Shown here in pieces: positions 41,899 to 64,000 of a stretch of DNA of 64,000 nt (positions within the stretch are counted from its first letter, which is position 1; each line of letters opens with the position of its first letter). Under the pieces are notes generated by a model, which was not told the DNA's origin, searched no databases, and saw nothing but the letters and a program-made list of their open reading frames with translations. Made by a program: the position numbers and the translations under genes. The stretch is from Gonapodya sp. JEL0774. Lineage: Eukaryota. Location of the stretch: the NCBI GenBank assembly GCA_027604505.1, contig JADIIX010000004.1, forward strand, positions 186,001 to 250,000. Direction: 5' to 3'.

Positions 41899-42348
41899 AA
41901 GCGCGGCGGTGAAATGGCTACAGAATTTGGTCAAGTTCTCGGCCACTACACACCTGGAGAAAACTACATACATACCTCCGCCTTGAAGAACAGCCTAACC
42001 GGTGAGTTCTTCACGCAAAGTTACTTCTGGTGAGATTATGGGGAGAGACGAATCAGCATCTTAATTCTGCTTGAGGCGGCATCACCATGAACATCTGCGA
42101 AGGCTGCAGAACCACTCTAACGAAAGTTGCCAGACATGTATGATACAGATAGGTCTTCAATTGCGGATGAACGCAAGGAGGACCTTCGCTTTGAATTACA
42201 TAATGAGGAAAGTGTCATGCTTCATAGCTTAGACTGTGTGCTGCTGAGTCAATCGCCAATATTGAAGACAGGAATACTAGGAGAAAAAAAAACTTGTCGC
42301 TAGTAACCTATAAGCAACTTTGAGACGGGTATGCTGTCCCGTTAACTG

Positions 42349-42585
42349 AACAACAGCAGGTCCCGGTCCTCTGTTGAGCAGCAAGGGCTTCCAGAAATGA
42401 AGTGTCCATGATATAGTGTCCATGAAAGTGTCCATGTTTTTGTCCATGAGAAACGAAAAACAGCGAAAGAGGGGGAACCTCTCTCGGCGCAATTCAGTGA
42501 CAGCTGGCACGTACCTGTGGAGTGTCCCGGATCCATGCGGCAGGGCATATCCGAGTGGGTTGTTGTAGCCGTGGTCAGCCAAATT
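42349..42585 (-). repeat. Dispersed repeat, copy 2
   Basis: Reverse-complement homology to 708-921; contains tandem tgtccatg units. Confidence 0.75.
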
Positions 42586-44559
42586 GGGGACCAGGAATAG
42601 ACGGTTAGCTTCGGGGGAGACAGAGAGAGGTCCCTGAAAGCTGTGTGTGCCGGCGTTGGAAACGAGATCATGTGCCGAAGCAGATCGTTAAAGGTCTTAC
42701 GAGTCATAATCTCATATTATAGATGTGAAGAGTAAGGGTCAATGAGTGAATTTGTGAATTGGTTTAGACTGACATGATTTGATTGATATCATTTATTTGT
42801 GTCACAAGGTTCATGATGGATCTCAAAACTCGAAAGAAACCCTAACTGCACTTGACCACATGTAACTGCTGGAGGCATGTACCGTCACTTAATTGAGCAC
42901 TTACACAAGCATTTATTGACCATTACTCGTAGAGCTTGGTCATTTATTGACATTCGCCACTGCCCCGGAGCAGTCACAGACAGTCGCGGTTTGTAAATGC
43001 AGCTACGTAGCATTTAGCACCAAGTTTCAGCATTTAAATACACCCATATGTGTAATCTGGTGGTTCTGATATTGACATTGTCATATGTGATATGCACTCT
43101 TGCCAGCTTTCTGTTTGGCCTGTGGGGCCGACAAACTCATTCTCACCTTCCCCCACCAGCGCGTAACGACAGATGGGCCTGTGACAATACTTCAGAGGTT
43201 CTCATACAACAGTGGATTTAAGATTTGTGTAGGACAATGGTGCACTGCTGGAAGGACAATGACACCCATTGCTCAGGAGCGCAGCTGGTGTCACAGGAGG
43301 GGTACAGGAGCAAGGTAACGATGATGAGTGGTACAGCACCATTTAAGGAATATTTATTTGTCAAATTTCTGCACTTTATTGGAACGAGTAAGCGGTTCTA
43401 TTGAGGTTTGAGTGTGGCACTGCAGCAGCTCCACCAAGACACTGCTCGGAAACATTCCCCCAAACACAAAAGCATCTCCACCTTGTTTTATCAGACGTTG
43501 CTGGCTTGTGCTCTTGCAATACTGGAAGTTAATGGCTGCCTATGAGGTGGGTAAGATGCCAACAACTCTTGCCACGTCCCAGCTTCCATCTCAAACTCCA
43601 CGACCTCTACACCTGGCGTCCACACAAGAGGATCACTGAAGGTGAGTGGTGGCGCGTATTTTTGATGACGGTGGACAGAACTTAGAACTGGAAGCGAATG
43701 CCTAGCGTGTTGGGGACTGGCTCTGCTGATTCAGTCTACTGGCAGTCGTGTGTCCTCAAACAGGATCAGCACCTGAATCAATACATGATAATCCTCATGA
43801 GCACTACAATATGCAGTTCTCCTAAGTAGCAACAGCAGTACCTCAATTTCCAGCATTGAGGCTTCTTTCCAGATCCAGCTCGTAAGTGAGCACTCTCCAA
43901 GCTTGTACTACACTGCTGTTGAATTGGGTGTGTCACGTTTCAAGCTCTATTTAATGGAATAATTACAATGATTTCTAGTGAGTGATGAAGATATCCTGCT
44001 GCCTTTCTTGTCTGCACTAACAAGTGGATGAAACATTCATTGCTGCAACATTTGTAGTGAGCTGTCAAGGACCTTATATGTGCTGCGATGGGAAAGTACT
44101 TGAAGGTACTTCAGACAAAGTGAGTAATGGTTGTGTGAGCACTGGTCGTTTTGCTCAATCTGAAATTTGCTCCACCCTGAGGTTACTCCCAATCATCAAT
44201 CTTTCTGTGATCCTGGGATCCAGTACGCTTTCTAACAGGTGAGTTGGTGGACAGAGCATTGCTCGTGGAGTTGTGTTGTCAAGTTCTCAATGGATGAACG
44301 TTCAGGATTACAGAATCAAGGAGCAAGGATTTAAGGGCAACTCTACCTTGGAAACAGAGATGTTACTTTGAGAGAGTGTGAGGTGCTGGCAGGTGAGTGT
44401 GGCCAGTGGAAGTACATGCTAGTGATGTTGATGGGTTAGATGTATGTATGGCAGAACTGCCAGTAACCAGTTTATCACAGAATAAACAAAATTTAGAATT
44501 ATTTTATGGTGATATGTCAAATGAAGAAAGTGCAAAAACATGAGAAGGATCCAGTGGAC

Positions 44560-44900
44560 CAGGAAACAGAAATTTAAAAACTATGGAGGATGGAATTCAT
44601 TTGCTGATCACATGTCTTGCACAAATGTTGCTCAAGGAGTTTATAGAGCACCCTGGCCAGCAACAAGTTGTTTGGGTACCATCAGAGGAAAAGATTGTTC
44701 AGAATGCCATCTGGGCAATCACAGGTGAGAGCATAGAGGTAGAATTGGATTCTGAAGACAATGATGGTGGCAAGGTGGAGGAGGTGTTCAGTGTGTCAGA
44801 GAAGCTTCAGATTCTTGCTTTGGCAAAGTACAACACTGCTGTTCAAGCAATTCTCTATTTTACTTTCCAAAAAATCCAATAATGCTAGACAAGCTACTTT
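44560..44900 (+). pseudogene. Possible pogo/CENP-B-type transposase C-terminal remnant
   Basis: EFIEHPGQQQVVWVPSEEKIV...DSEDND...KLQILALAK resembles the acidic tail of pogo/Tigger transposases; no catalytic domain or TIR found. Confidence 0.3.
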
Positions 44901-46149
44901 ATATAATTTGTCTGTGAAAAATAGAGACCATTTGCAGTCAGCAGCTGCTTGCTAACTCCAGGTCAAGGCCCTCCACCAAGTGCCTGCAAATAGTCAGCTT
45001 GCACTGTACTGGTCTAGTGGTCACTCTATTGAGCTTGTCAATATAGTCAAGTGGGTGCATCATCTTAAAGATTTCTACTTCTGGTGACCAAAACAACAGG
45101 CAAAGATAGGGCCATGAAGGAGGTGAAACAACATGGACACCATTCCAAGATGGTGAACAGCAGGTTCTGTTCATGCTACCATTCGATCTTGGTGCAGTCT
45201 GATTCTGCAAGTGCCTGATGGTTGGTTGTGTCAAAAGTTGATGTAGTCCAGGCACTGGCACAATAGACGGTGATGGTGCAAGCTCCCCAGGTTCAAAGAG
45301 TACCCGAGGATGTGAAAATTGCATCCCCCTAGGTTGCAGACCCATACAATGCTGAACAGGACTGAAATCTTCTGTGGCACCTTGAGGTGCAGAAATTCCA
45401 CCAGCATGGATACTACCAAAATAGCTTGGCATCGTCATTTGTGGAGAAGGACAGAGTCCCAAGTAGAGAATACTGGGGGAGACTGCAAGAGGATTTGTCG
45501 GAACTTGCCATGCTGACAGCTCAACTGCTGATGTAGAGGTTGAACTATTGAACCACTCCCAAGAGCAGTCCACTCACAAAAAAATGCTGTTCCATTGGTA
45601 GTTTTACTCTTTTCACTGACCGCTCCCACAGAGATCCATACATTAAGTTGTCAATAGCATTGTTTATACTTCTGCTTCCATCAGTAGACCCATCCAAGCC
45701 CAGAGTTTGCTTCATCAATTGCGATTACAGCAGTCACTATTGCTATTGACTGACTCGAGAGTTTGTGTAAGGTCAAATAACCAGGACAGTAGTTGTGAGG
45801 GAGGTGAAGGCAGTTGACTGAAAGGAGACATTTGTTCACTAGAAAAGCCACCATGAAGATACAGAAACAGTCTCTATCAAATTTTCATACATTTTTTATT
45901 TCAGTTCTTCTGCTGCAAGTCAAGAAGAAGTCTTATGTAATAAAACTGCCATATTTGGCAATAGACTCCTCACCATGCCACACTTCTTAGTGCAGTGCGC
46001 AGAAACTGGGGGTTTAACTGCAAGACAATGCAAGATAGATAACTAACCAGATCTATTTTCATATGGGAGGGGGTAATAGTTGGTAGTCCTCCCCTTGTAA
46101 CCTAAATAACCACAATGACAATCCTGTAATGATAACAACTGAATATGGT

Positions 46150-48995
46150 ACTATCAAATGTAATCTGTATGTACTCTATATATAGTGTATTCCACTGTGT
46201 ACTGTCTAACCATAATGCTCATACAAACAAGTTTCAGTTGTTGAGCAGCTTGTGGAACTTGTCACTGGGGTTGACAAAGCACATCCACACTCCTCCTGCT
46301 CTGCCGCATCCAAGTCCCAAGCGTTGTCCGTTACGCTAACAAATTTCTTGTCCGTTCTTGTCCTGGGGTGAGGGTTTTGTCTGGTCAGGGTTCTGTGGCA
46401 CTGAGCCTTGTGGCCCCATCTTTTTACTGCAGACACTCCACCTCATAAAGACGTTCTTCTCAAGACCAGTGGCACATGCCAGAATTTTAATTTGGAGGTT
46501 ATCGCAAAGGATTGCTTTTACTTGAGGGAATGTTAATGAGCTGGTGTGTGGGACATCTTCCAGCGTGAATGGATTGGACTCACTTTGCAGTATGAAAACT
46601 GGCAATCCTCGTTCACAGTACAGGAACAGGAGACAATGGATCATCACATCCTGTGCATTCTTCTGCTATTCATCAGTCTTGGCCGGAGCATCAACAAGTT
46701 TGTTCACCTCTGTAATGATGTTAGCAAAGGGATACATCTTGAGGAGTCTCCTGAACTCGGAGGATAGAGTGGGAAATTGGGGGTCTTTTGGGAAGGATCC
46801 CCAAAATCTGGTATCGCGGGTCCCCTTGTTCCTTCATCTTCTCCACCACTGCAAACAACATGGGAGCGTAATGAGTGAACCTGATATACTGAAAATTTGA
46901 ATTGTTCCCTGACTGATTCTTGTTGGGAGTGCAGTGGTGAGTTCCTGTTCTGTCACCAGGGAAACACACATAGATTACCACTAAGTAAGTAGATGAGTAG
47001 GGTTGTGGTGTTAGGGATCAGTAGGGACGCAGAGGCGTAGTGGCGTAGGCGCCACAGGGTTAGAGATTCTTTAGGTTTCATAACAAGCACTCTGTCTCAG
47101 GTAGGATGGAGCCTTGGTGGTGTATTTGACATTACATCTACATTTCTGTCTCAGCTATCCTATAGTTTGAGTTGTGACTCCAAGGCCGGGGCACATGTTC
47201 TCCCTGTGTGCAGTGCAGTAGAAGTGGAGACGTAGGCCCATGTCACTCATCCTGGCACTCCACAGATGTATAGCTTACTCAAATGATTCAAACTCATCAG
47301 TTGAAAGTGTGCCAGATTGACGATGTTTCGGACTGTTGTCATCACAAAGGCAGCATACCAGGCTGAGGCAGGGTCAGAGGACACGTTGTTGGTGGTGGGG
47401 CTGGGTTTGTGGCATGTCCCTGTGAGTTTGCTGCCTGACAAACAGTGTGGGTTGGGTTTAAGGTATGTCCCTGCATGTTTGCTGCCTGACAAGTCTTTAC
47501 CATGTTCGAGCAAGCTCTGCCATTGCGTCCACTCCTCACTACTGGCGGCAATTCCTTTTGGGCATGGGAAGTGGAGTGGAACAACGGGTTTCCCACCTTG
47601 GAATGCAAAGGTCCATACAGCAGCATTCAGCTGTATTTGCTGTAGCCGCTCTGCCAGATGGGGGAGGCCCTTCGCTTCTGTGGGCACGAGAGATTTTGAA
47701 GTCGCTGAAAAAGTGGTGCGAAAGGAACACGAGGTGTGTGGTGTGTTTTTGCGATGGACGTCTGAATGTTATTCGCTGATTTTACTCACCGTTGACTGTT
47801 TGCTTGTGCAAACCGCCGCTCTGGGCCCCAACAAAAACTTTGTACCAGTCCAAAGGGCATTGGAGCATCGGGACAGGAGTCGGCAAATGAAACAGGTCTC
47901 CCGCGAGATCACCAGAGAAGTATGGACACAGTGAGAGACCTTGGGTGGACAGTACAAATGTGGGTTGGAGCTGCAAGACGGTCAGTGGGATTTCACTCAA
48001 GGTGAGTGTGTTGTCTGTGGTGTACTCAGTGACCAAGCACGCAAATGGTACGGTACGCTGCAGCTGGCCCAAACACATCCTGAATGATGGACATGGGGAT
48101 CAGGGTTAACATGCCAGAGCAAAGGTTCTTTACGCAGTGGTCGACAACCATCTGGAGGTATTCAACGGCGTTTTCCAAATCAAGTAAGTTGTGGCCCCTG
48201 ATCTCCGCCCTGATTTGTCTGACCATCTCCATGGCCTTTTGTACTCTCCCCATTTACTTGTCACTATATTGGCCCATTTTTCTGACGTTCCTGGCCATGG
48301 CTTCTCACTGTCCTCTGAGTTGAGGACACTCTCTTCTCGGTACGAGCGTCGCCCTCCTTGAGGCTTTTGGTGAGCCAGGGCAAGAGAGTAGACTGTGTTG
48401 ATGACATGGATGTAAGGTAAGTGCAATTCTGGTTGGGTGAGCAGAGGGATTGAAGAGAGAACTACGTGCGAAGGAATTGGGTGTCTTGAGACTGGTGGCT
48501 GAAATGGAGTAAAGTTAGAATGTATGAAGAAATCGAAGTGTAATACATTTGAGAATGAAAGAGGTCGTTGATTGGACGAGAGATCTGTCTGCGTGGGGTG
48601 TGGTCACCCTGCCATCCTCCCCACATACCAGTGTGAACGAGAAACGGTTGAAGCCGTTCACATCCACATTTTATAAATGTGAGGACACAACGGAAACAAG
48701 AGTTGAGATCAGAAGCACTGACACTATGGATCTCCGAAATTTGCTGGCGAAAAACAGCCTCTGTCGTTCAAATCTTCGGGTTTTGGTCAGACGTGGGGAG
48801 TGGGCAAGTATTCAGGAGAAGATGGCAATGCAAGGGTGGCGAAAGAGAAGAGTCCGATGAAATCAAGTTTTATCGTTGTTTGCGCGGGGTTTTGAGTGGT
48901 TTCCCTGTGGTCAATGAGATAAATGCAAATCTGGAGTGAGCAGGTTGGAGATGTGGTGGAGGCTCCAACCCAAACGAACAGCCGTGGTTGCGTCA
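46150..48995 (-). mobile_element. Degenerate copy A of the unclassified element (internal deletion and a solo LTR insertion)
   Basis: Colinear homology with 49848-51157 and 53211-54510; frameshifts, stops and CpG decay. Confidence 0.85.
46951..47195. mobile_element. Solo LTR (245 bp)
   Basis: TG...CA termini; perfect 5-bp TSD TGTTC (46946-50 and 47196-200); absent from copy B; related to the LTR at 56048. Confidence 0.88.
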
Positions 48996-49280
48996 ACAAC
49001 CAACCATATTTGGGCAGCCATTCATTTGTACTTGTGCCAATGGGTATGTCAATTGCACAAGAGCACATGGGAAAACTGTTGCTATGCGCTTTGTAATTGA
49101 AGTTCCACACAAATGCGCACTACCTATCACACAAGCATTTGATCCCTTCTGACACCAACAATCACGTTGTGGACACACAGCACGTACTCTCAATAAATAA
49201 ATAAATAAAATCCAGTGGTTATTGGGTCCAATTATGATTTAACGCTCTGAATCTATGCTCTATCTAATAGGAACCGCTTC

Positions 49281-49517
49281 GGTGGTGTCCATACACCGCA
49301 GTACCACGCACTTTCCTCTTGAGAATAACCCGGCCCCAAGGATCAATAACTCAAGCAACACCTCTCATAGCTGGTGGCTCTTTTCCGAGGGTAAGCGTGC
49401 ATGGACAGCGAGGGTTCCGTAGCCCAGAAAGACCTGGGCATGGGGTCGGCAAGTGCATTTACACACCTTCACGGAGGCCTGTTGACTCCACAGTAACCCC
49501 CCGCTACACAGACCACC
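49281..49517 (-). ncRNA. Candidate structured RNA of unknown class (upstream of copy A)
   Basis: Nested helices GGTGG/CCACC, AGCGGGGG/CCCTCGCT, GCCCAG/CTGGGC, CCATGCAC/GTGCGTGG, CTTGAG/CTCAAG; G-U pairs favour the minus strand. Confidence 0.5.
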
Positions 49518-49828
49518 AATTCATTATATTTGACGTTTTCAATTCGAGTCGGAGATCGGAGAACCTCGCAGGGGGCAGGAAAGTTGGTGCGAGAGGGAGG
49601 ACGATGGGCATTTGCAGCGGCACCCACACAAGGCTGAGCCTAACCATCGTTGATCCTCTTTTCAGTCCTCCAGATTTCTCATGATTCATTACTTTCGCCG
49701 TCATGTATTATAATGAGGATATTTGGTGCGCAACTTGTGATCGGCCTGACAAATCAAGAGAGCTGTGCGCCAGGCTTTCAACCACTAAGCCAATATATAA
49801 CATAAACAACTTTTCCAGAGTACTTCGG

Positions 49829-49844
49829 CCCTCATTGGAACAGT
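49829..49844 (+). pseudogene. 5' fragment (16 nt) of tRNA-Arg(TCT)
   Basis: CCCTCATTGGAACAGT is identical to 55467-55482 and has a similar leader (ccagagta). Confidence 0.8.
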
Positions 49845-49916
49845 CAGCTATTCAAATGTAATCTGTACGTACTCTATATGTGATCTGATCCACTCTGTAC
49901 TGTCAACCCACAATGC

Positions 49917-52900
49917 TCATACAAACGGGTTTCGGTTGTTGAGCAGCTTGTGGAACTTGTCACAGGGGTTGACAAAGCACATCCACAACTCCTCCCGCTC
50001 TGCCGCATCCAAGTGCCAAGCGTTGTCTGTCACAGTAATGAATTTCATGTCTGTTCTTGTGCCGGGGTGTGGGTTTGGTCCGGTGAGCGGTCCCCGGCAC
50101 TGGGGCTTTGCCGCCCCACCTTTCCACTTGACACACCCACGCCGCGGACACTCCACCTTCGCAAAAACCTTCTTCTCAAGACCAGCGGCACTTGCCAGAG
50201 TCTCGATTTGGAGGTCGTCTCGCAGGATGGCGTTCGCCCGATGGAATGTCAACGAGTGGGCGTGTGGGACCTCGTCCAGTGTGAACGGATTGGACCGACG
50301 ACCTTGCAGAGTCACAAGTGGGGACCCTCGTTCCCGGTACAAGAACAGGAAACGATGGATCATCGCATGTTGGGCGTACTTTCGCCATTCATCCGTCTCC
50401 GCCGGAGCGTCCGCGATTTCGTTCACTTCCGTCACAATGTCAGCGACCGGATACAGCTCGACCAGCCTTTTGAACTCGGCAAACAGGGCGGCAAGTTGAG
50501 GACTTCCATCGGGGAAAACTTGAGGGCATCGCAGGACACCCAAGTTCCTGTATCGCGGGTCCCGTTGTTCCTTCATCTACTCCACCACCGCAAATGCCAT
50601 TGGAGCATCATGAGCGAATCGGATGAAATTGAAGCCGGAGACGTTTGCTGATTGGCCAATGTCAGAAGTGCATTGGTGAGTGCCTGTTTCCCCTTTGTGC
50701 TGTGCTGGGGAGTTGGAGACATAGCCCTGCGTCACACATCCTGGGACACCACAAATGTATACCCGTCTCAAGTGATTTAAACTCGTCACTTGAAAATACG
50801 CTGGGTCAACGATGTCTCGCACCGTTGTCATCAGGAACGCCTCATACCGGGCTGAGGTGGGGTCGGAGGACATGCCGTTGGTGGTTGTGTTGCGAGCTTG
50901 AGTTGGGTTCACGGCATGTCCCCGCGAGTTTGCCGCCTGACGGAAGTCTTTACCTTCTCCTAGCGAGCTCGCCCATTGCGTCCACTCCTCACTACCGGCT
51001 ACAATCCCTTTCGGGCATGGGAAGTGGAGTGGAACAACGGGTTTGCCAACTCGGAATGCGAAGGTACGTACAGCAGCAATGAATTGTTGGATTTGTTGTA
51101 ACCGCTCTGCCGATTGGGGGAGGCCCTCGGCTTTCTTGGGCAGGAGGGACGTTGAAGAGCGCCTGTCGTCGTCGGACGAGGGGGAAGAGTCTACAATTTC
51201 GATTGCAGTACTTGTATCTAAAAGTAGAAAAGAAAAAATTGAATAAAAATATATTGGTCAGTTAGAATATCATAGCGAGATTTGAGACGAGGAAGTGGTG
51301 GGTGGGGGATTCGGCTTCGAGAGGGCGGACCACTCTGACACAAAATCCTTACCTTCACCTCCTTTCAAACCACCACTCGCCCGCAACGAACGAACAAGCC
51401 GCACCCTCCCCGTTTCGTACTCCCTACGAAGCTCCCTTAGCTTCGATTCGATTTGCTTGGCGATCGCCGATTCCCGGAACCGGTCCAACAGAGCCTCGAG
51501 CTCCACCCTGACAGCGTCGCCTCCGTCGTCGAGGCGCCACGGGTAGTTCTATTATGGACATGATGCAGAAGAGGGATGGATGTATCTGTGAGTTGTCACG
51601 GTTCGGGAGCAGGACGAGGTTCAGGGCCACCTCACCAGAACACTCACCTCATCCCGTTGCGAGAGCTGCTGGCGCACGAACAGGTCCAAGCACTTGCTGT
51701 GCAGTAGGCCGATTGCGAAGAGCTGATAGTACAGGGGTGAGGGCGATGGATCGTGCTTGAAGTGGCCTGGATGGATGTTGGGACTGACCAACGCCCAGTC
51801 CCTGCTGCGAGGCCCGACCTTGCAGACCGCTGTCGTCCCAACGAGTTGGTACAGCTGTCTGACGGCTCGTAGCTTCTCGATTTTCAGGTTGCTTCCGTTT
51901 GACGTCTCACCAGCCGCCTTGTCCTCCAGTTCCCCATCCGCCAGCAGACCCTTCTCAAACACCGCAACGACGCCTTCCGAATCAGCAGCGACGTGAATCG
52001 GCATCAATATACCCAACTGACGGCGGAGGAAAAGGAGGGCGCGGAAGAACCAGCGGCGGTTGGTTGTCGGCAAGACATCCATAACGGTCCCAAGACGCGG
52101 CACAGCAGGAAATTAGGCGGTACACTGCTTGTTGCAGTGCAAGGATTGTGGAAAATGGTGAGTGAGAGCTCTCTTGCTATCGCTGGCCCACTTCCTGAGA
52201 GTTTGTGGAAGAACGGTATTCCATTTCTAACTGCCTCAAGTGTCACATCCTTGTGGATGTTCACTGTTGACACGGCACCACACTGTGTCCGAATCGGTTG
52301 AGACAGTTGGGCCAACGGTATGGCAATCTCCTCGTTGTAGTGAGGTAAGTGTGCCAAGTCCGCCGGTTCTCGCAACCCAAAGGAGGCAGTGAATCCTTGC
52401 ACCCGGTCGTAATACAGGTCGCCGAGAGCGTCACTCAGCCGTGTGTCGTATGCAGTGGCTGCCGCACCTTGGGTTCGTTGAGAATGAACGTGGAGGTGAG
52501 TTTGCTTGTCATGTGATCGAATGTGAGTTTGCGCGCACTGTGGAATTCTCACCATCCATTGCTGTCTCTCCCAATTCCTCCAATGCAGGCTTTATGGCCA
52601 TCTCCCTAGCATTGCCGATCAAGTCTGCGACGGAGTTGTCGAGACGGAGTCGCCGAGAGTACCCGCCAAACGCCGAGTTGAGCGCCAAGGGTCCGATCAG
52701 CAGGACAAGTGCGTCCTCGATGTCACCGACGAACTGCATCGCGAACTCACACCGGTCATCCAAGAATTCGGGGATCTCCACTTGGATCAGGGCGTGCGAG
52801 GTGAGTTGCTGGAGGAGATGGTCATCGGATCCAGACACGAGTGAGTCACTGTCGCTGTCGCTGTCGCTGTCCACATCCACATCGATTGGATCAGATGATC

Positions 52901-53938
52901 CATTTCGAGTGGATGTATCGGCAATACGCAGAAAGTTGAGGATGCGGACTCGCGATTTTGTTCGAGTGAAATCGTTCATCATCCGCTCCTGTCCATCGCA
53001 GACTCGCGAAACTCCGGCGTATCTGAACGAGAACGCGCGATCTGAATCGCTCTCTGCGAATTCTCGGACCTGGCGGTGGCAGTGGTCGAGGACGGCGGTG
53101 GCCCATGGAGCGTCGGCGGGATAGCTTTCGAGGTATGTTTCGAGTATTGTTGTCGCCCTTTGCAGATCAACTCTGTATTCTCGAACGTAGAATTCAAAAA
53201 AGCTGAGTTTTTGAAGTCGCGGAAATAGTGACGAGAAAGGAAGACGAGGTGAGTGGTGTGTTTTGGCGAGGACGTCTGAATGTTGTTCACTGATTCTACC
53301 CACCGTTGACCGTTTGCTCGAACGAACCGCTGCTCTGGGGCCCCAGCAAACACTTTGTACCAGTCCGAAGGGCGGTGGAGCATCGGCACAGGAGTCGGCA
53401 AATGAAACAGGTCCTCCGCGAGATCGCCGGAGAAGTACGGACGCAGTGAAAGACCGTGGGTGGACAGTACAAATGTGGGTTGGAGCTGCAAGACGGTCAG
53501 TGGGATCTCACCCAAGGTGAGTGCTTTGTCCGTGGTGTACTCGGTGACCAAGCACGCCAGAAGGTGTGGAGCTGCTGGCCCCAACACATCCTGAATGATG
53601 GACGCCGGGATCGGGGTTGACATGCCAGAGCGAAGGTTCTGCACACGGTGGTCGACAACCGTCTGGAGGTACTCTGCGGCGTTTTCCAAATCGAGTGAGT
53701 TGTACCCGGCGATATCCGTCCTGATTTGTCTGACCATCTCCGTGTCCTTTTGTATTTTCCCCATGTACTCGTCACTAAATTGGCCCTTTTTTTTGACATT
53801 CGCGGCGATCGCTTCTCTGGTCTTTGCCTTGTATGTCGCTGTCCTCTGAGTTGACGACACTCTCTTCTCGGCACGAGCGTCACGCTCCTCGAGGTTTTTG
53901 GTGAGCCAGGGCAAGAGTGTGGACTGAGTTGATGCCAT
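49917..53938 (-). CDS. Element copy B gene: ~1,100-1,200 aa protein with GIY-YIG-like and UDG-like motifs and Cys clusters; one frameshift and one premature stop
   Basis: Four GT-AG introns join ORFs 52979-54067, 52509-53303, 52004-52555/51621-52103, 51270-51506 and 49917-51220 in frame; frameshift near 52110; TAG at 50577-79 is AAG in copy A. Confidence 0.7.
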
Positions 53939-54800
53939 GGATAAAAGGTGAGTGAAATTCTGGTTGGGGGTGAGCAGGAGGGATCGAAGAGAGCACAATG
54001 TACGAAGAAATTTGGGTGTCTTGAGACCGGCGGTTGAAATGGAGTAAAGTTGGAATTTTTGTACCAAACAAATTTGAATACATTTTTTTATGAAAACCGG
54101 TCGGCGTTCGGCCCAGAGAACCGGCCGGGGGGGGGTGGGCCCCCCCCCCCCCCCCCCCCGCCCCCCACGAGAAACGGTTGAAGCCGTTCACACGTACATT
54201 TTGTGAACGTGAGGACGGAACGGAGACAAGATTTGAGATCAGAAGCTCTGGCTCTTTGGATCTGTGGAATTTGCTGGCGAAAAACGACGTCTGTCGTTCG
54301 AATCTTTGGGTTTTGGTCAGATGTCGGGAGTGGACGAGGATTCGGGAGAAGATGGCAATGCAAAGACGGCGGAAGACAAGAGTCTGATGAAATCGTGTAT
54401 GTCAAGTCGTTTGCGCCGGGTTTCGAGTGGTTTCGCGGTGTCGATGAGATGAATGGAAATCTGAGAGTGAGCAGGGTGGAGATGTGGTGGAGGCACGAAC
54501 GGCTGTGGTCGGTATACCTCCAAACAATTCGAATTCCAATCAACAAAAGTATTCTGTCTTGCCCTTGCAGTAGTCACCAAAGTGCTTTGTGTCCGTGCCA
54601 GGTCCACAAAATACTCCTATTTGATTGCCGAGTGTGCGCTCGTGGGGGGGGGGGGTCGTACCAGGCAGTACCCGGAGCCTTTTGTGGGCAATTTAATAGT
54701 AATGCTGATAATTCAAGGTTTATTGGCGTGGATGCTACAAAGTCTACGGCAAAGAAATAAGAAATGCATACCACCGCACCACCCACCACCCGTTAGATGA

Positions 54801-55042
54801 CACGGGACATGAATCCATTCCAAGGCTTGCTATCCAACCATTGCAAACCAGCCAATAGCCTTCGGACGACGAGAAAATCCGCCTCCTACCGCTGCTGGTG
54901 GCCAGCAATAGAAGGCAGACTGAGATGCAGCGAGCTTCCCAAACTCCGCCTCACTGGGAAATTGACGTCGGAACACGCAGCAAGGGTGCTGGGGATTGAC
55001 ACGTTGAACAGGCGTGGTGTTGGAGAGCCTCGCGTCCCGGGA
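54801..55042 (-). ncRNA. Candidate structured RNA of unknown class (upstream of copy B)
   Basis: CGGGAC/GTCCCG closing helix, GCGAG/CTCGC, CAGCA/TGCTG, TGCTGG/CCAGCA, AAGGCT/AGCCTT; topology resembles 49281-49517. Confidence 0.45.
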
Positions 55043-55466
55043 GCTGTGGGTTCTGGGCGGTACTGGACAACATCAGCGTAAAGGAGTCCCAAGAAGGCTT
55101 CACACCGGCGTCCAAAGCACCAAAGATACCAGGGGATGTGGCAGTGAGCTTTGGGGTTCAGGGCAAAAGAGGGGGGAGACAAAATGGCAACGGACGGGGG
55201 GCAGCATACAAACCGACCTGGGGAGAGTTGGTTTGCTCTGCCTACTGGCGGAGACCGCGCTAACCCACCGCCAATGAGCGGGGATGGAACCGCGATGCCC
55301 GATGCGCGGCGCCTATCCGACCGTCGGACTTTGGAGCGATGGGTTCTCCAATGTACCTTGAGTGCAAGGTGGCACAGCCACAGGACAGCCACAGCCGGCA
55401 GACACTTGAATCGCCCAACAAAATAACCTTTATATTCTGAAAACTGATTTACCAGAGTAGTTCTTA

Positions 55467-55539
55467 CCCTCATTGGAACAGTGGACAGTTCATCTGCCTT
55501 CTAAGCAGAGAGTCGTGGGTTCGACCCCCACATGAGGTA
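55467..55539 (+). tRNA. tRNA-Arg(TCT)
   Basis: Cloverleaf: CCTCAT/ATGAGG acceptor (C1-T72 mismatch), GAAC/GTTC D-stem, TCTGC/GCAGA stem with loop CT-TCT-AA, GTGGG-TTCGACC-CCCAC; T-rich tract downstream. Confidence 0.88.
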
Positions 55540-55688
55540 TAATAATGTTTTGTTTTCTCTTTGAGTTTTTGAGAACTGACTGTTACAATCACAGAATGTT
55601 TTGTTTTTCTTTTTGAGTTGTTGAGCTGTCTGGAGGTCATTGTCTTGTGGTACGCACTGTGGCCTTGTCCATTGCCCGTTTGTTTCTG

Positions 55689-55765
55689 CCCCCCATTTGG
55701 AAACAAGTGGACAGTTCATCTGCCTTCTAAGCAGAGAGTCGTGGGTTCGACCCCCACATGAGATA
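55689..55765 (+). pseudogene. tRNA-Arg(TCT)-derived copy 2 with an altered 5' end
   Basis: Anticodon and T arms identical to copy 1; acceptor and D 5' strand disrupted. Confidence 0.8.
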
Positions 55766-55870
55766 CAACAAGTTTTGCTTTCTTTTTGAGTTTTCAAGCT
55801 GTCTGGAGGTCATTGGGGTTGTGGAACGCATTTTGGCCTTGTCCATTGCCTGTTTGTTTCCTGTCCCCCA

Positions 55871-55946
55871 CCCTCAATTTGGAAAAAGTGGACAGTTCAT
55901 CTGCCTTCTAAGCAGAGAGTCGTGGGTTCGACCCCCACATGAGGTA
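55871..55946 (+). pseudogene. tRNA-Arg(TCT)-derived copy 3
   Basis: 3' two-thirds identical to copy 1; 5' end reads ccctcaatttggaaaaagtgg. Confidence 0.8.
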
Positions 55947-56476
55947 CAAAAAGTTTTGTTTTGTTGTTGAGTTTTTGAGAAGGGACTGTTACAATCACAG
56001 AATGTTTTGTTTTTCTTTTTGAGTTGTTGAGCTGTTTGGAGGTCATCTGTCACCCCTAGTGACATTTGAGTACCTGCTGCTAGGATAGTGGTTGGGTAGG
56101 GGGATTAGTCACGTGAAAGGGGTCGTGTGGCACAGCGCACACAGGGTCATTCAGACACAGAGGGTTTAGTTTCTCTTAGGTTTTATAGAGTCCACTCTGT
56201 CACAGGTGGGATGGAGGCATGTCAGTATTTGCTTTGCTCTTGTTCATTACATTTCCGTCACAGTCTTCTGCTCTACGCTCGACTCTGGTAGTGACCCTTA
56301 GGGCGTGTACGGCCAGCACATTATTGTGCACGGATTTGGATTATGTGGGCGTGTTCGACACTTTCAAGTAACAAATTACTAGTTGTTGCTCACTGAAAAA
56401 AATAACTACCTTCAGGGCTTGTTTTTCAACCATCACAAACTCATACTTTCGGCATACACACCAATTCCTCAACGCA

Positions 56477-57617
56477 ATGGGACCGAAACAACGCGAAACT
56501 GGCAAGGCTAAGACAGAGGATACAGAGGACATGGACGAGAGGGAAGGGAAGGTCCAGTGGAAGACCAAGGACAGAGAGAGGGTGCTGCTAGAGACCCTCC
56601 TCTCGTTTAAAGCACACAGGAACGGCGGCAAGTTCTCCAAGCAGTGGACACCGATTGTTGCTGCCTTCAACCAACGGGCGAATGTCAAGTACAGCAAGAC
56701 AGCAATTCAGAACAAGCACGGGGAGCTGAAACGAATGCACACAGCATTCCTCAAGCTCAGGGACCGTTCTGGAGCCGGCGTGGACCCAACAAACCCGTGC
56801 AAGGTGACGATGAGCGATGATTCATGGAAGGATTGGGAGAAGGTGAGTGCTAGGTTAGGATGGAGGTCCCGAGGAACTCTATCACCCCTTCGTTTTTAAT
56901 GAACAGCACAATGAAGCCCTCGTCAAGTACAAATGGCGTGACAATGGTTTCCCATTGTTTGTGCTGGCTGACCAGATCTGGGGCACCACTGCTGCCACTG
57001 GACAATACGCGACGAACGCAACAACACACCAGGCGCGAGATACCAGCAGAGATCCGGCGGACATGACAGACAGCGGCGACTCATCAGAGGATGAGAAGAG
57101 TGGAGCGGAGCAGGATGAAAGTGATGGACGTAGCCTCAGGGACAGTCGGGAGGGAGGTGAGTGCTACTTTCATATTGCTCCAATCGCATACCAGACTTCA
57201 CTACTGCTTTTTACAGGTCAGGGCAGTGCTCCTAGCACACCTGTGCTTTCTGTCTCTCTTGACGGGTCGCGGAGGGGCTCCGAGGGTTCTGTCATACGCT
57301 CGAAAGCCCCAACCACACGCCAGAAGCGCAAGCGGGAAAGCTCTATCACCCCTAACCCAGCGGACACAATTGCGGCCGGCATCAACAACTTTGCAGACGT
57401 ATTCAAGACGGCTATGCAGAGTGGCGTGGCGGAGGGGAATGGCAGCTGGGTGGTAAAGGCGCTCAGCGTTGCTCTCACGGACGGGTTCAATGCTGAGGAG
57501 CGTCGCCACCTCGCAAGGCTGTTCAGAGAAGACAAGGTGAATGCAGAGGTCTTCTATGGTTTGGGGGATGTGGGGACACGACGGGGTTGGCTTGAGGACC
57601 AGGATCTGCCCATGTAG
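56477..57617 (+). CDS. Harbinger Myb/SANT-like DNA-binding protein
   Basis: VQWKTKDRERVLLETL...FSKQWTPIVAAFN...IQNKHGELKR...GAGVDP; spliced. Confidence 0.85.
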
Positions 57618-57705
57618 CTATGTCCAACGCGAGATGCAATAATAAATTTCATGTATTACAACAGATGTAGTGTAAATAAGAAAAAAACTGTTACGCTATA
57701 CGCCA

Positions 57706-59032
57706 TTAAGTGTCTATAACAGGTGGTGGGCGATAATCCCGTTCCGCCCGGATTCGCACATAGTCGTCCCACATCCTCTGAGCCGTCTGCTCCCTCCACA
57801 CCACTGCTGGCTCCATACGGCGACGTTGTGACTGCACCTCCCCGTTGACTGTTGGGCCCACTGGGTATGGGTTAGCAGCAACAAAGTCCGTGGCAATTGC
57901 GTCCCCAGCACCATGGGTCCGCCGATGCACAAAATTGTGGATGACACAACATGCCACCACCATCTCCACTTGCAGAGTGAAATCCATATACCGCCCACCT
58001 TTCTCTAGTGCCTGTGTCCTGTTCTTAGCAATGCCGATCACCCGCTCAACAATATTGCGGAGGGAGGAGTGCTGCAGGTTGTACAGCTCTAGCAGTGTCT
58101 GAGGTCTATTAATAAAGAGGACAATGTAGATGTAGGAGTGCATGAGTCAGTGAAATTTTCAGCACTCACCTCTTTCCCCACTCTGCCCACTCTTTGAGGT
58201 GATACCGAACCCGGAACTTGTATGGGGTCCTCCATTGCATATTGTGCTCGTATCCTGCATCCACAAGGTACCAGCGTCCATCGGGCACATGGAGTCCACC
58301 ACGCTGAAGAGCGTCGGCAAGAACTGTACCGTCATGTGCTGAGCCCTCGTACCCCGCATAAACATAAACAAATTGTCCATCCAGATCCACAATCACGAGT
58401 ACATTCTGTGAGAGAAAGCCCTTACGATTCCGAAAGGGAACCTGAGCATCCCCTACAGGAATGCGTGCCTTGATGTGTACCATCAGCAGCACCAAGGCAC
58501 CCATCAAAATAGGGGGAGAAACAAGGGTTCCCTGTGATCCCTTCTGACTGCACAGTGCTTGCCGTGGGTAGTACAATATAGTCCGGGGCAAGAGAAGCGA
58601 CAGCTGCTTGAGCAGCTGGGACATAAGCGGTTACAGTGGACAGGGAGTGCCTGAACGCGAGTCCGTATAGCCCGCATAGACACTCCTTGTCCCAGATACA
58701 TCATCAGCATCGCCATCTGCTGTTCTGCGCTGACCTCTGCTGTGTCAATCAGTTCCCGTCGCAAGCGAATCCTGGCATAGGTCGAGGAAGACCGTTCGCG
58801 GCATCCTCAGATTGTCCAGGACCATCTCATCATGGGCACACAGAGTTTCCTGAGTCCAGGCCTTGCCCTGAAGCGCACTATTGGTCATTGGGCGCGGGAC
58901 TTGGTGAGGATGGGGAATCAGAAAAGAGGCAGCAGCGGCAATGACCATGACGAAGGCCGCACCAGTCGCCGCGACCATCCGAGTCCTGCTTTCCACCAGA
59001 TCGTTTGATTCCACGTCTGTATTTTCCGCCAT
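57706..59032 (-). pseudogene. Harbinger DDE transposase (HARBI1-like), frameshifted
   Basis: LRMPRTVF, FRNRKGFLSQNVL, AGYEGSAHDG, YLVDAGY, HSSLRNIVERVIG, CCVIHNF. Confidence 0.9.
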
Positions 59033-59275
59033 GATGCAAATCTGCCATGTGGGAGATGCGGGGTTTCTTGAAGGATTATGGGCGTGTTCGGCACTTGCTG
59101 GACCAAAAACTAGTAATTTACGGGGAACTCATACATGCACCCCCAATAACGAATACTTCACAAATAATTACTTTTTAAAATTACAGGTGCCGTACACGCC
59201 CTCAGACAGGTCACATCATTGGGGTAGTGGAACGCACTTTGGACTTGTCCATTGCCTGTTTGTTTCTGCCCGCCA

Positions 59276-59352
59276 CCCTCAATTTGGGAACAAGTGGACA
59301 GTTCATCTGCCTTCTAAGCAGAGAGTCGTGGGTTCGAACTCCACATGAGGTA
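59276..59352 (+). pseudogene. tRNA-Arg(TCT)-derived copy 4
   Basis: Same unit as copies 2-3; T-arm reads ttcgaactccac. Confidence 0.8.
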
Positions 59353-59454
59353 CAACAAGTTTTGTTTTGTTTTGAGTTTTTGAGCTGTCTGGAGGTCGTT
59401 GTCGTGTGAAACTCACTTTGGACTTGTCCATTACCTGTTTGTTTCTGCCCCCCA

Positions 59455-59526
59455 CCCTCAATTTGGGAACAAGTGGACAGTTCATCTGCCTTCTAAGCAG
59501 AGAGTCGTGGGTTCGACCCCCACATG
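59455..59526 (+). pseudogene. tRNA-Arg(TCT)-derived copy 5, 3' truncated
   Basis: Ends at cccccacatg and abuts a second Harbinger remnant. Confidence 0.8.
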
Positions 59527-59599
59527 GACCTCTCTGAGTCAATCTTGGATGCAACTCAATCAGGATTTGCACGAAGTTGATGCGGGAGGCGGACTGCGA

Positions 59600-60711
59600 T
59601 TGCAGCCTTGGCTCTGGTCACACAAACATTGTCGTCTTGGCAGGGGAGGGCTGAAGTGGGACCGTCATTTGACTTCAGGCAATATTTGGATGCAGATTCC
59701 TGGTTCTACTTCAGGTAAGACATTGTTGTGCAGCGCTTTTACAGTTGTTCTTGTGTCGGGCATGCGGTTGCTTTTTCAGATTTCATAAGAACGATATACC
59801 GTGACTTCAACGCGCTTTGTGCATTCTGACTCCTTTTCAATGGCCAATCAAGTTTGAGTGGATGGTACATTTGCACTTTGCCTCCTGTTGCGCCGGTTTG
59901 CGTACCCAAATCGCCCGGAAGAGCTCTCAGCAATGTTTGGTCGCACACATGACTAACTTTCGAGGGTTCTGGACTTCACAATCAATCTGATTGTTGAGGA
60001 GTTCAGGGATACCTTGAAGTGAGATCATGTGCGACTGACTGCTGAGCTGCTGACGCAGTTTGGGAGAGCAATCCAAGGCAGGAGGGGCTCCAACTGACAG
60101 CATTTTCAGATTTGTGGACTGTACAGTACGGCGAATTTCCTGTCCAGAGGACCACCAGAAGCTGTACTACAATGGGAATAAGAGGATGCATGGCGACAAG
60201 TACCAGTCCATCATCACACCTGATGGCATCGTTCACCTGACAGGTCCATGGGTGGGAAGGTATCATGACATCACCATTTGGAGATGGAGTGGAATGGAGG
60301 AGCTGCTGCAAGAGCATGGTGAGTGAATAAAGAGCATAATTAGCACTTTGAGAGATTACAGCTTTTGATATGGGCTATGATTTCAGGACGAGACGTCAAT
60401 GGAAATAGCATGTTTGTTTACGGAGATCCTGCGTATCTTGCTGTGGAAGGGGTTATGACATCACAGAAAGGACATCTTACAGAGGTTGAGCAGGAGTTGA
60501 AGACAATTATGAGTGGAGTGGGGTTTTGCAAAAATTCAACAGATTGGGCATTCATGGATTTTGCGAGGAATTTGAAAACAGGGTTGCAGCCGGTTGGTGC
60601 ATACTACATTGTGTACTTCTTACAAATTGCCATACCTGCATATACGGTCATCCAGTTGCCAGCAAATTCATGTTGACACTGCCCAGCTCAGAAGAATACT
60701 TGCACAATTAG
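59600..60711 (+). pseudogene. Second Harbinger-type DDE transposase, degenerate
   Basis: FVDCTVRRISCP, YYNGNKRMHGDKYQSIITPDG, GPWVGRYHD, VYGDPAY, LTNCHTC; stops and frameshifts. Confidence 0.88.
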
Positions 60712-60774
60712 AATCAAAACATATGTTTGTAGTTGCAATTGGAAGATCCATCACATTAAAATTACAACCTACTA

Positions 60775-61910
60775 CTATCCCAGCTTATCTAAAAGAGCCT
60801 TCATCAGCTGCACGGACCTCTCCTCTTGGCATTGAATAGTGCGCCTTGTCTCCTCCTCACGCACCATCCGCTCTCTCCTGTCCTTCTCTTGTTTCCGCTC
60901 TCTTGCACCCTCTCCTTCCCGGCAGCTTTGCCTTTCCTGCTTCCACTTTTCCTTGTCCCATTCGTAACATTCCCTGCTGAAATCCAAAAGCTCCCGTTGA
61001 AGCTGAAGGTTCGTTTGATCACTTGTGGGCCCTTCAGCAAGAGCGGCCCCAATGGCGTCAAATGTTGTGTTGGAGCGAGCCAATTGGGATTTGCGGTGCT
61101 GTTTTCCAGTCCCGATGCAGAATTCATCATCTTCTGCAACAGAACTGGCTGACGCCTCATCCTCCACCAACCCGCCTCCAAGTTCCAAAGGCACCTTCTT
61201 GTTCTTTGACTTTTTGTGGAGGCTTCTCATTGCGTCCTCCATGGCAACTTGTTGCAGGTGCGGTCAAATGGTTGTCACATCAGTTGCCCCTCCAGCCCCC
61301 AAAACCAAAGCAACTGCAACTCACTATTGGACAACTGATCAGCACATCAATATCCTTCTTCTGTTACCTCCCAACTCTCGCAGCTTCCTCCTGAAGACGA
61401 AGGACGGTAGGCGTTCATGAACAGTGAGACTGAATGGAACAGCGATCACTCACCAATTGACAAAGCTCCTCCAATGCATTGTCCAGTTCACTTGGCTCCT
61501 CCTCCTCCTTGCCCGACTCCTTTTTCTTCTTGTTATCCTCTGCCTTGTACTCCTTCATTAACTTCTTCACCTGCTTTTTGCGCCAATGCGTATGTCAACC
61601 CGCTCCTGCTGTGCACTTTCCATTTTGAACCCTTCCTCATGCGATAGAGCGGATACTTTGATGCTTCCACGGCTACAGCTGACCACGCACTTGATACAGT
61701 TTTGTGGGTGGTGAGATCGAACGGATCGACCTGAACCGCTGCTTGCGCCAGAGCCAAATCGTAGACCTTGTTCTTCCAAAACCAAAACTGCGTCTTGGGA
61801 GCCTTCTTGGCCGACTTCTGCGTTGAACCGTCGTCTTTTGGGACTGCTAGGTCTGTTTCATCCTCGTCTGACCCGCTATCACAGTTGGAACCACTTCATA
61901 TGGCCCCATC
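60775..61910 (-). pseudogene. Harbinger accessory (Myb-like / coiled-coil) protein, degenerate
   Basis: DLALAQAAVQVDPF...AWSAVA and a charged coiled-coil C-terminus; convergent with the transposase. Confidence 0.65.
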
Positions 61911-63319
61911 AAAGATAAAAATGCACCTGCATTTCAGACATACATCATTGAGACATGAAATTGCTTCATTGCGGTGCAGTTCAGGGTGAATACTCACTCG
62001 GAATTCTATTGGTCATCCCCCGATTCTTCCCTTCCGTGCATCCCATGGACCTGGGCAGCTTCCACACAGCTCATCACAACTCTCCAATGCACAATCAGGG
62101 CGTGAATAGGAATCGCTGTCAAAAAAACAGACACTGGGGAAATGAACGAGGTGACATGACAGCACCAACGACGATGAAGACACATACCAGCCACGTAGGG
62201 GACAGAAGCATGTTTGCTGTGTAATTAATGATGAGACAAAAGGTGAAGGAGAGTGAGAAAGAGAGGACACAAGACATGAAACATGGCAAGTGGAGATGGG
62301 GGGCAGACCATATTGGTATTGTCCGCATTTGCATTTTGCAACTGTTTGGGCTGCTAGTTTAGGGCGGTTGAACGTAGCTCAGCCAAATTAATGGCTTCTA
62401 CATGCTCAAATGCCAGGATTGGTGATTGTGGGAAATGGTAAAGGGCTGTGGAGTGTTTAGAATATGTCATTCCATTGTGTCAGTACTCAGTTAAGGTGGC
62501 TGGCTGGGCAAAGCATTGTAATCCAATCACTAGCTTCTAAGTGTAAACGTGAAGCTGAAATTCAGCAATTCGTAAAAAGGTTTGTAGCTGTCAATTCGGG
62601 GCTTCTCCTGCATATTGACATTTAATTGTCACATGCCTGTGGGGAAAGAGAACATTGTCCCTGGTCCCAGACCATTCAAAACTTGGAACCACACTGACAC
62701 TCCCTGAAACGTTTGTCCCACCGCTGTATTGCTACAACAGTCCATCTTCCAAAAATGGCGCAAATTGCACCAAGAAATCCAAGAAAGATGTAATGGTGGA
62801 AGCAGGTGCGTAGCAGTGACTATATTCGATTCAACCACTGTCTAACCTATTGTGACCCTTCTCCTGATTGTAGCCATAAGAGACCCAGTAGCCTTTGAGG
62901 CCATCATTGCGATGGCTAGACAGACAAATGTTGATGGAAGTCAGATACACTCCTTTGTCTCTCAGTTGTTGCTGTGTTCTGCTGGACTCAAAGACAGGGA
63001 ACAAGAGGTGCTAAATGTTTTATCAGCTGGTGAGAATGTGACCCACCAGGTTGATTCTGTTCTCTTTGGACGCCAAGCTTTGTGACACAGGATGTGAAGC
63101 CTTACAAACTTCGGGTCACACTGAAACCGCAACAACCTTACGGGAGCAATTCACCTCAATTATTGCAGTTCAAACAAGTCTGCAGCAGTCTGAATCAAGG
63201 GTCTCCAAACTGGTCGGTATGATCTGTGCACTTGAACAACAAGTCGCCAAATGTAACCAACAACTCCAAACAGCCCAATGTGAGCACCAAGAGAGAATTA
63301 GGACCATGCAATCCCAACA

Positions 63320-63650
63320 CATAACTGAAAGAGATGATCTTGCTGAGCGAGTTGGGCGAATGGAACAGGAGATGACAGATTCAGCACAGCTGATGAAGGT
63401 GAAGGATGCCTGTTCTCACAAGTGACAACTGAAAGGGATGATATGGCTAAACAAATAGAGTGCATTAAACAGGATATGGCACATTAGGCACAGCTCTTGA
63501 CTGCAAAGGATGCCACATTCTCACAACTGATGACTGAAAGGCACAATATGGCTAAACAAATCAAGGGCATGGAGCAGAAGATGACAGATTCAGCACAGCT
63601 GATGAAGGTGAAGGAGGCAGCGTTGTCACATGTGACAACTGAAAGGTAAA
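63320..63650 (+). repeat. Degenerate tandem repeats within a coiled-coil ORF remnant
   Basis: gatgacagattcagcacagctgatgaaggtgaagga occurs twice; actgaaag..atatggctaaacaaat recurs. Confidence 0.6.
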
Positions 63651-64000
63651 TACAAAGGAACACGAACTACGTGCAACTTCCGGACATCCCTCTGAAGTTA
63701 TAATGAGTGCAATGAATTGCGCAGCTTCGCATACTATGCACCAGCAATGTGCCCACATTGTTCCTGGCTGCGTGAACTGGCATTTCAGACTGTTCCAGCC
63801 CTATCCAGTCCTCTCCAGAGAATCTGCTCATGTCAGCACAGTTATGATCTGTCAGTAGATAGTGGTTTGGGACAAGTAGGATGGTGTGGTTGAGCTGGAG
63901 CCAAGCTGAGGGTACTAGCATATAGCAGTCAAAGAATCACATCCCATCTGTCACAGTTTAATGTGGAAAACCTAACTGTTTTCTGTCTGGCAAACAGCAC

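Follow-up and report, generated by a model that had tools for sequence, protein, structure and literature searches.

The 64,000-nucleotide window analysed here (positions 186,001 to 250,000 of contig JADIIX010000004.1 from Gonapodya sp. JEL0774; coordinates below are counted from its first letter) contains the first 16 nucleotides of a tRNA-Arg(TCT) gene joined to one of two copies, A and B, of a ~4.7-kb unit encoding an orphan protein, and an intact tRNA-Arg(TCT) gene (t1) on the far side of that copy. We favour, with a probability of about 0.38, the reading that copy B landed in a sister tRNA gene of t1, here called t0, and that the 3' part of t0 was lost. With the same probability, the two tRNA segments would form a 16-bp direct repeat simply because two paralogous tRNA genes have conserved their 5' ends. 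Across the models that we weighed, the core of the repeated unit is fairly probably a discrete entity, mobile or duplicative, that occupies a tRNA gene. A preliminary description of the locus had instead proposed a single tRNA-targeting element of ~5.6 kb, which restores its target and was inserted serially.

A tRNA stump and an intact tRNA gene share their 5' region

The sequence CCCTCATTGGAACAGT is found at 49829-49844 and again, without any mismatch, at 55467-55482, at a spacing of 5,638 bp. These are the only two matches to the 16-mer in the whole window when both strands are searched with up to two mismatches (0.09 expected), and they are still the only two with up to three, which confirms the exact direct repeat of the preliminary description. 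Its assignment to nucleotides 1-16 of tRNA-Arg(TCT) also held: ARAGORN and the Rfam tRNA model identified the intact gene at the right-hand copy, and by a numbering made from the sequence the left-hand copy, or stump, breaks off after T16, in the D-loop/A-box and between the arms of the D-stem. The acceptor stem of t1, as read from the sequence, has a C1/T72 mismatch. The stump is followed by the nucleotides CAG and, after this 3-nt gap, by the core of copy B. No tRNA model matched at the stump (49600-49900) even at E<=10, compared with 56.7 bits for the full tRNA at the right-hand copy, and a relaxed ARAGORN search returned noise only. The left copy does stop where the right copy continues, as had been described.

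The similarity extends beyond the tRNA. BLAST aligned 49779-49844 with 55416-55482 over 67 columns at 70% identity (E = 2.9e-6), and the identity decreases with the distance from the tRNA, from 16/16 in the head to 13/16 at positions -4 to -19, 9/16 at -20 to -35, 8/15 at -36 to -50 and 3/16 at -51 to -66. The proximal leader sequence TTTNCCAGAGTANTTC occurs exactly at 49811 and 55448 only; the remaining six of its eight matches carry three mismatches. The 16-mer is the exact end of a ~66-bp module of leader and head, and the locus holds two diverged copies of this tRNA 5' region in which the coding part has been kept perfectly. Because the homology reaches ~50 bp into the leader, the repeat is not a target-site duplication (TSD). 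The two earlier statements that the leaders are related but different, and that a simple TSD would not account for the repeat, are thereby supported. Just upstream of the stump leader, the minus strand of 49766-49795 resembles the D-arm of a class II tRNA; no tRNA model matched this stretch at E<=10, and the resemblance may be due to chance.

A third copy of the leader is suggested to the left of copy A, where the stretch 46107-46140 (L') aligned with the distal part of the stump leader (49779-49811) over 34 columns, 25 of them identical. Of 3,074 random 70-nt windows, 0.4% scored at least as high, as did the same fraction of 10,746 and 11 of 1,841 composition-matched windows; shuffling gave p = 0.012. 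Since L' was one of four comparisons tried, and its p values of about 0.004-0.012 are uncorrected for these, we regard the presence of a third leader remnant as suggestive. Compared with the leader of t1, L' was not significant (p = 0.14), and the 16-mer search of the window with up to three mismatches found no tRNA head after L' or elsewhere left of copy A. The earlier remark that the left end of A shows no clear tRNA fragment is therefore correct for the head, with the possible leader remnant as an amendment.

The repeated unit is discrete at both ends

Self-comparison of the window revealed two copies of the ~4.7-kb unit on the same strand, which are also the only matches in the window to the family proteins by tblastn. 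Copies A and B align in three blocks with 73-82% identity by self-BLAST, or 76-84% after realignment. The segment 51158-53204 of B is missing from A, and the gap lies between short repeats similar to GAG(A/T)TTTTGAAG (families D18/D19). The two cores have common ends, CTAT... on the left and ...GTGGT[T/C]G on the right, beyond which the flanks are unrelated, although these ends are defined by two linked copies only (n = 2). The homology stops sharply at 48990 and 54512, even though the neighbouring non-coding 574 bp are still 64-90% identical. This abrupt limit at both ends of both copies indicates that the core is a discrete unit. Measured from the respective tRNA heads, the start codon is 1,422 bp away in A and 1,529 bp away in B, in accordance with the ~1.4-1.5 kb noted previously. 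Ends of the Helitron-like, Crypton-like or terminal-inverted-repeat type were not visible in the sequence.

Both copies appear to be broken. At the sites that differ, copy A tends to have A/T where B has G/C (base in A given first: 94 A>G and 111 T>C differences, compared with 40 G>A and 43 C>T), and the observed/expected (o/e) ratio of CpG is 0.48 in A versus 0.98 in B. We rejected decay resembling repeat-induced point mutation as the main process, because the A/T excess in A together with the loss of CpG fits deamination of methylated CpG. The annotated 1,057-aa protein P0002 maps onto copy B at 100%. However, an in-frame TAG interrupts B at 50577-79, opposite an AAG in A, and segments conserved among the paralogues occur in two frames of overlapping B DNA near 52040-52110 and are absent from the P0002 model. 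In the public gene model of P0002 (49920-53938), introns are laid over the in-frame stop and the frame change. These introns take out stretches that the paralogues conserve, and the protein annotation of copy B therefore probably covers a pseudogene.

Unrelated tails and a CpG step set the core of copy B apart

From left to right, the locus is composed of core A, tail A, a leader with the 16-nt head, core B, tail B, and a leader with the whole tRNA. Neither at the nucleotide level nor in six-frame translation did tails A and B resemble each other, the tRNA array on the right of t1, the DNA left of A or any other part of the window. The CpG o/e ratio is 0.98 in the coding sequence (CDS) of B and 1.09 in its non-coding upstream region, whereas tails B and A have ratios of 0.74 and 0.71, respectively, and the contrast between the B core and its flanks gave Poisson p values of 0.025 (tail B) and 0.009. 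Thus, the ratio drops at the border between the core and tail B, and tail B resembles tail A, unlike the B core. With normal CpG in the B core and low CpG in both tails, the B core is set apart from both of its flanks. The right-hand DNA up to the repeat does not group with the unit, the tails being unrelated and tail B having a ratio of 0.74. What stands of the proposed ~5.6-kb single element is that the stump is fused to a discrete repeated unit of a multicopy family; the evidence for such a unit does not extend to tail B and the right-hand leader and head.

The unit encodes a multicopy orphan protein family

We used the read-through C-terminus of copy B (TAG taken as X) as the query for a HMMER search of 1.84 billion representative sequences. 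Seven proteins were found, namely P0002, four paralogues of 1,075-1,398 aa with 27-39% identity, a weak match to a 337-aa protein of G. prolifera and one unnamed protein. At E<=1e-9, the only relatives of the orphan protein are the four paralogues. All five large proteins are labelled Gonapodya sp. JEL0774 and annotated as 'hypothetical protein' or as a fusion model. When 5.8 billion proteins were searched with a profile, only P0002, P0003 and P0005 came up, again all from Gonapodya sp. JEL0774. The unit encodes an orphan protein of ~1,100-1,400 aa, and the family is multicopy. P0003 and P0005 are encoded outside the contig studied here, both on a contig of the same length; their accession numbers follow one another, and they share 87% identity. 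P0005 is without the middle of the protein, and its model is fused to an eIF2D gene (Pre-PUA, WH_eIF2D and SUI1). They probably constitute a second adjacent pair in which one copy is internally deleted.

Pfam searches of the five family proteins at E<=10 yielded nothing except for the eIF2D part of P0005 and chance-level matches, and no sequence match to the family was found in the PDB. The open reading frame (ORF) at 52979-54187 had no homologue by word index, and 243 aa of copy B gave no usable match in the Atlas. The AlphaFold2 (AF2) model of full-length P0003 had a pLDDT of 37.9, too poor to judge the fold. From its motifs, we suspected a GIY-YIG nuclease domain at approximately residues 270-460 of P0002. 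The Atlas ranked phage GIY-YIG clusters first and third (0.81 and 0.79), and in a VIA-wide search of 48,161 chains with a mediocre domain model (pLDDT 55.6), the catalytic domain of I-TevI came first with a Z of 4.8, a root-mean-square deviation (rmsd) of 3.2 and 81 residues aligned, no chain having reached Z>=5. The GIY-YIG profile PF01541 of Pfam did not match, hhalign gave probabilities of 0.3, 1.2 and 0.1% against I-TevI, SegG and a five-member T4 alignment, respectively, and Foldseek found nothing in the PDB or BFVD at E<=0.001. We therefore treat a GIY-YIG-like fold in the family protein as a lead only. None of the papers listed in our literature searches dealt with this orphan family or with a eukaryotic element that restores a tRNA gene.

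Proposed insertion into a sister tRNA gene and its alternatives

According to the reading that we favour, t0 would once have been a whole tRNA-Arg(TCT) gene, a paralogue of t1 kept identical to it by selection or gene conversion. The 4.7-kb copy B would have landed in t0 after nucleotide 16, later than the decay of the surrounding DNA, either through transposition as an unclassified element or because it was captured at a break, and nucleotides 17-73 of t0 would have been removed by the break. Copy A, 0.8 kb upstream, would stem from an earlier insertion of the unit that has since decayed and may adjoin a third leader. The gradient of leader identity fits paralogous tRNA genes under constraint or conversion, whereas uniformly decaying duplicates would not give a gradient. 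The same process is suggested by the identical tRNA bodies nearby: a 28-nt body probe was found exactly in five of five local copies, whose flanks are 74-93% identical. Unrelated tails would be expected if they were simply the different upstream DNA of t0 and t1. The sharp limits of the core and the CpG step around copy B are accounted for as well. The orphan family itself looks like selfish or duplicative DNA, given that its five large proteins are all labelled with one organism, that it lies here in a CpG-depleted, transposon-bearing block and that both local copies are broken.

Several observations weigh against insertion into a sister gene. A search of 40-64 kb at a 40-nt setting returned no inverted repeats, and copy B has no terminal inverted pair, the sole match to its left end being internal and 75% complementary. 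Short TSDs are not present in the sequence at the core ends. The Pfam scans found no transposase, reverse transcriptase (RT) or recombinase family inside 49815-55539, as the preliminary description had already noted. Neither the right flank of A (p = 0.75) nor that of B (p = 0.98) contained the tRNA body, and the absence of the 3' part of t0 from the right end of the B core means that a deletion must be assumed. Furthermore, the CpG step could reflect the expression state of the core instead of its age. A real L' would call for a third tRNA paralogue and for another insertion at a similar position, which would itself amount to tRNA targeting, and the probable second adjacent pair favours processes that make tandem pairs. 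The sister-gene reading explains both of these poorly.

A rather unlikely alternative is a self-restoring element, comprising core, tail, its own leader and tRNA nucleotides 1-16, which integrates at the D-loop of tRNA-Arg(TCT) by a Campbell-type single crossover or homing-like break repair. The old head would be left behind as the stump and the gene rebuilt from the element's own head, with A having integrated first and B subsequently into the tRNA rebuilt by A. This would account for three 5' modules with a single tRNA body, in the order leader(?)-A-tail-leader-head16-B-tail-leader-head-body, and for leader homologies that all begin near -50, suggesting a discrete module. A head of 16/16 despite the diverged leader next to it, a break within the D-loop that separates the two arms of the D-stem, the probable second family pair (P0003/P0005) and the weak GIY-YIG leads (0.81 and 0.79 in the Atlas; Z 4.8 for I-TevI) are also in its favour. 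However, the left end of A has no tRNA head, with a leader remnant at p about 0.004-0.012 before correction, and no similarity links tails A and B, although under this model they would lie inside two related elements. In addition, the CpG of tail B is at the level of tail A and not of the B core, the Pfam scans recognised no recombinase, transposase or RT family, the GIY-YIG profile comparisons reached probabilities of just 0.1-1.2%, and both copies are dead. The serial insertion proposed in the preliminary description would fit the layout if the third leader is real; the missing head at A and the unrelated tails weigh against it. We consider it doubtful, to the same degree, that the locus represents a new class of eukaryotic mobile elements, in which a 4.7-5.6-kb unit of a chytrid-like fungus would home into the D-loop/A-box of tRNA-Arg(TCT) and rebuild its tRNA target. 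It is equally doubtful that such an element, with an orphan protein of ~1,200 aa, perhaps a GIY-YIG-like nuclease, and its own leader and nucleotides 1-16, would form tandem arrays by way of the recreated target. We know of no eukaryotic element that rebuilds its tRNA target.

Another alternative is duplication. In an ordinary tandem segmental duplication of core, tail, leader and nucleotides 1-16, with a breakpoint in the tRNA, one of the tails would have been replaced later. Two copies lie side by side on the same strand, the junction consists of tRNA nucleotide 16, a 3-nt filler and the start of the core, and there is no head left of A. The locus is also prone to duplication, as the 181-bp tRNA array and a 105-bp repeat demonstrate, and a second adjacent pair of the family is probable. 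We nevertheless consider this model improbable, because tails of 0.8-0.9 kb should match and do not, while the adjoining non-coding 574 bp are still 64-90% identical. A dead 16-nt fragment would be expected to remain at 16/16 under 17-24% divergence with a calculated chance of about 0.03-0.06; moreover, the leader gradient is unlike uniform decay, and the possible third leader is not predicted. Even less probable, in our estimation, is a local doubling of a segment already flanked by leader-and-head repeats, through unequal exchange or through the insertion of a copied leader, head16 and core 0.8 kb upstream. It accounts for three leaders, a single tRNA body and the shared left edge of the cores. 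Unequal exchange, however, predicts homologous tails, which were not found. An insertional copy needs ends that coincide with the -50 limit of the homology and with the right end of the core, and the initial flanked state still requires another model.

A self-restoring, or otherwise unclassified tRNA-seeking, transposon would be a new type of target-specific eukaryotic mobile DNA and possibly a tool for integration at safe sites. If the locus is no more than a broken sister tRNA gene next to a duplicated orphan gene, the scar is an ordinary one. In that case too, it would imply that the annotated 'hypothetical proteins' of the orphan family are in part pseudogene models.

Comparison with known tRNA-associated elements

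Insertion into a tRNA gene that is then rebuilt is common among bacterial islands. In bacterial and archaeal islands and prophages residing in tRNA genes, attL and attR regenerate the gene, and tandem arrays arise by reuse of the rebuilt site. To our knowledge, such tRNA-rebuilding insertion has not been described for eukaryotic nuclear elements. The present locus resembles these islands in that a tRNA segment is directly repeated at the two ends, once in a truncated and once in an intact gene. Unlike the islands, it is eukaryotic nuclear DNA, involves the 5' part of the tRNA with its leader instead of the 3' part, and is a single locus; no integrase was recognised by the Pfam scans, and tail B is not grouped with the core by CpG. 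Free-standing GIY-YIG homing endonucleases such as T4 Seg and I-TevI are similar with regard to the weak fold leads and the location of the gene inside a conserved multicopy target gene. In contrast, the orphan protein is 5-6 times longer and has no support at the sequence level, and a homing role is putative here. Segmental or tandem duplication with a breakpoint in a tRNA gene likewise gives adjacent same-strand copies and a tRNA fragment joined to the start of the unit, but differs from what we observed in the unrelated tails, the identity gradient and perhaps the third leader.

The preliminary description had pointed to Dada transposons, which insert in tRNA genes, some families in the A box, encode a DDE transposase and generate TSDs of 6-7 bp (PMC3706591). 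The likeness consists of the insertion in a tRNA gene, internally deleted derivatives at the same site and the lack of terminal inverted repeats. By contrast, no DDE domain was found in the ORFs of A and B or in the paralogues, by Pfam scans alone and with no Dada transposase sequence compared. Moreover, the 16-bp exact repeat here belongs to a ~66-bp module, and the 3' part of the tRNA is missing at the other end of the core. The analogy fails on the TSD length and the transposase. Retrotransposons directed by Pol III, such as Ty3 and TRE5-A of Dictyostelium, integrate on the upstream or downstream side of tRNA genes and code for an RT (PMC5391098). They share with our locus the association of repeated DNA with tRNA genes; here, however, the junction lies inside the tRNA gene, and the Pfam scans found no RT.

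Genomic surroundings of the locus

The window is eukaryotic nuclear DNA with genes for Aquarius, a KAT11-type acetyltransferase, ankyrin and RRM proteins. Its gene-rich part (1-42 kb) has a normal CpG o/e of ~0.9. CpG is depleted, with TG/CA in excess, at 42000-50000 and 55600-64000, and the lowest ratios (0.0-0.3) are found at 44-46 kb. This pattern looks like methylation-linked decay limited to repeats, and the orphan unit is situated within this CpG-depleted, transposon-bearing block. Table 1 lists the features of the locus and of its surroundings.

Table 1. Positions of the tRNA segments, the copies of the repeated unit and the neighbouring features in the window
Feature	Position	Strand	Remarks
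Possible distal tRNA leader copy (L')	46107-46140	+	Ends 8 nt before A core
Copy A core	46149-48990	-	Internally deleted, decayed pseudogene copy
Tail A	48991-49778		788 bp, between A core and stump leader
Stump leader	49779-49828	+	Homologous to intact-tRNA leader 55416-55466
tRNA-Arg(TCT) stump (t0)	49829-49844	+	Nucleotides 1-16 only; exact copy of 55467-55482
Copy B core	49848-54512	-	72-bp 3' region, CDS 53938->49920 (probable pseudogene), conserved 574-bp upstream region
Tail B	54513-55415		903 bp, between B core and intact-tRNA leader
Intact tRNA-Arg(TCT) (t1) with leader	55416-55539; gene 55467-55539	+	ARAGORN; Rfam tRNA 56.7 bits
t2, t3	55697-55945	+	Degenerate tRNA-like, ~181-bp tandem unit; Rfam 27.7 and 35.7 bits
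PIF/Harbinger-type element	56301-59201 (approx.)		Splits tRNA-like array between t3 and t4; 0.8 kb right of 55539
Myb_DNA-bind_3 ORF of Harbinger	56372-56899	+	Pfam scan
DDE_Tnp_4 transposase of Harbinger	58630-58166 and 58146-57706	-	Broken into two ORFs
t4, t5	59279-59523	+	Beyond Harbinger; Rfam 31.5 and 34 bits; 89-93% identical to t2/t3 units
Second DDE_Tnp_4 fragment	60054-60676	+	E = 6.8e-10, in CpG-depleted stretch
105-bp tandem repeat	63360-63646		2.7 copies, 72% matches

The tRNA-like array to the right of t1 was assigned a period of 181 by TRF. In t2-t5, the first ~20 nt contain 3-4 single-base insertions that lengthen short runs, and the tRNA body seems to have been maintained without a proper 5' part. 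The PIF/Harbinger-type element that interrupts the array has a CpG o/e of 0.71 and arms of 17 nt that are 94% complementary (GGGCGTGTACGGC...), with TTA/TCA on either side.

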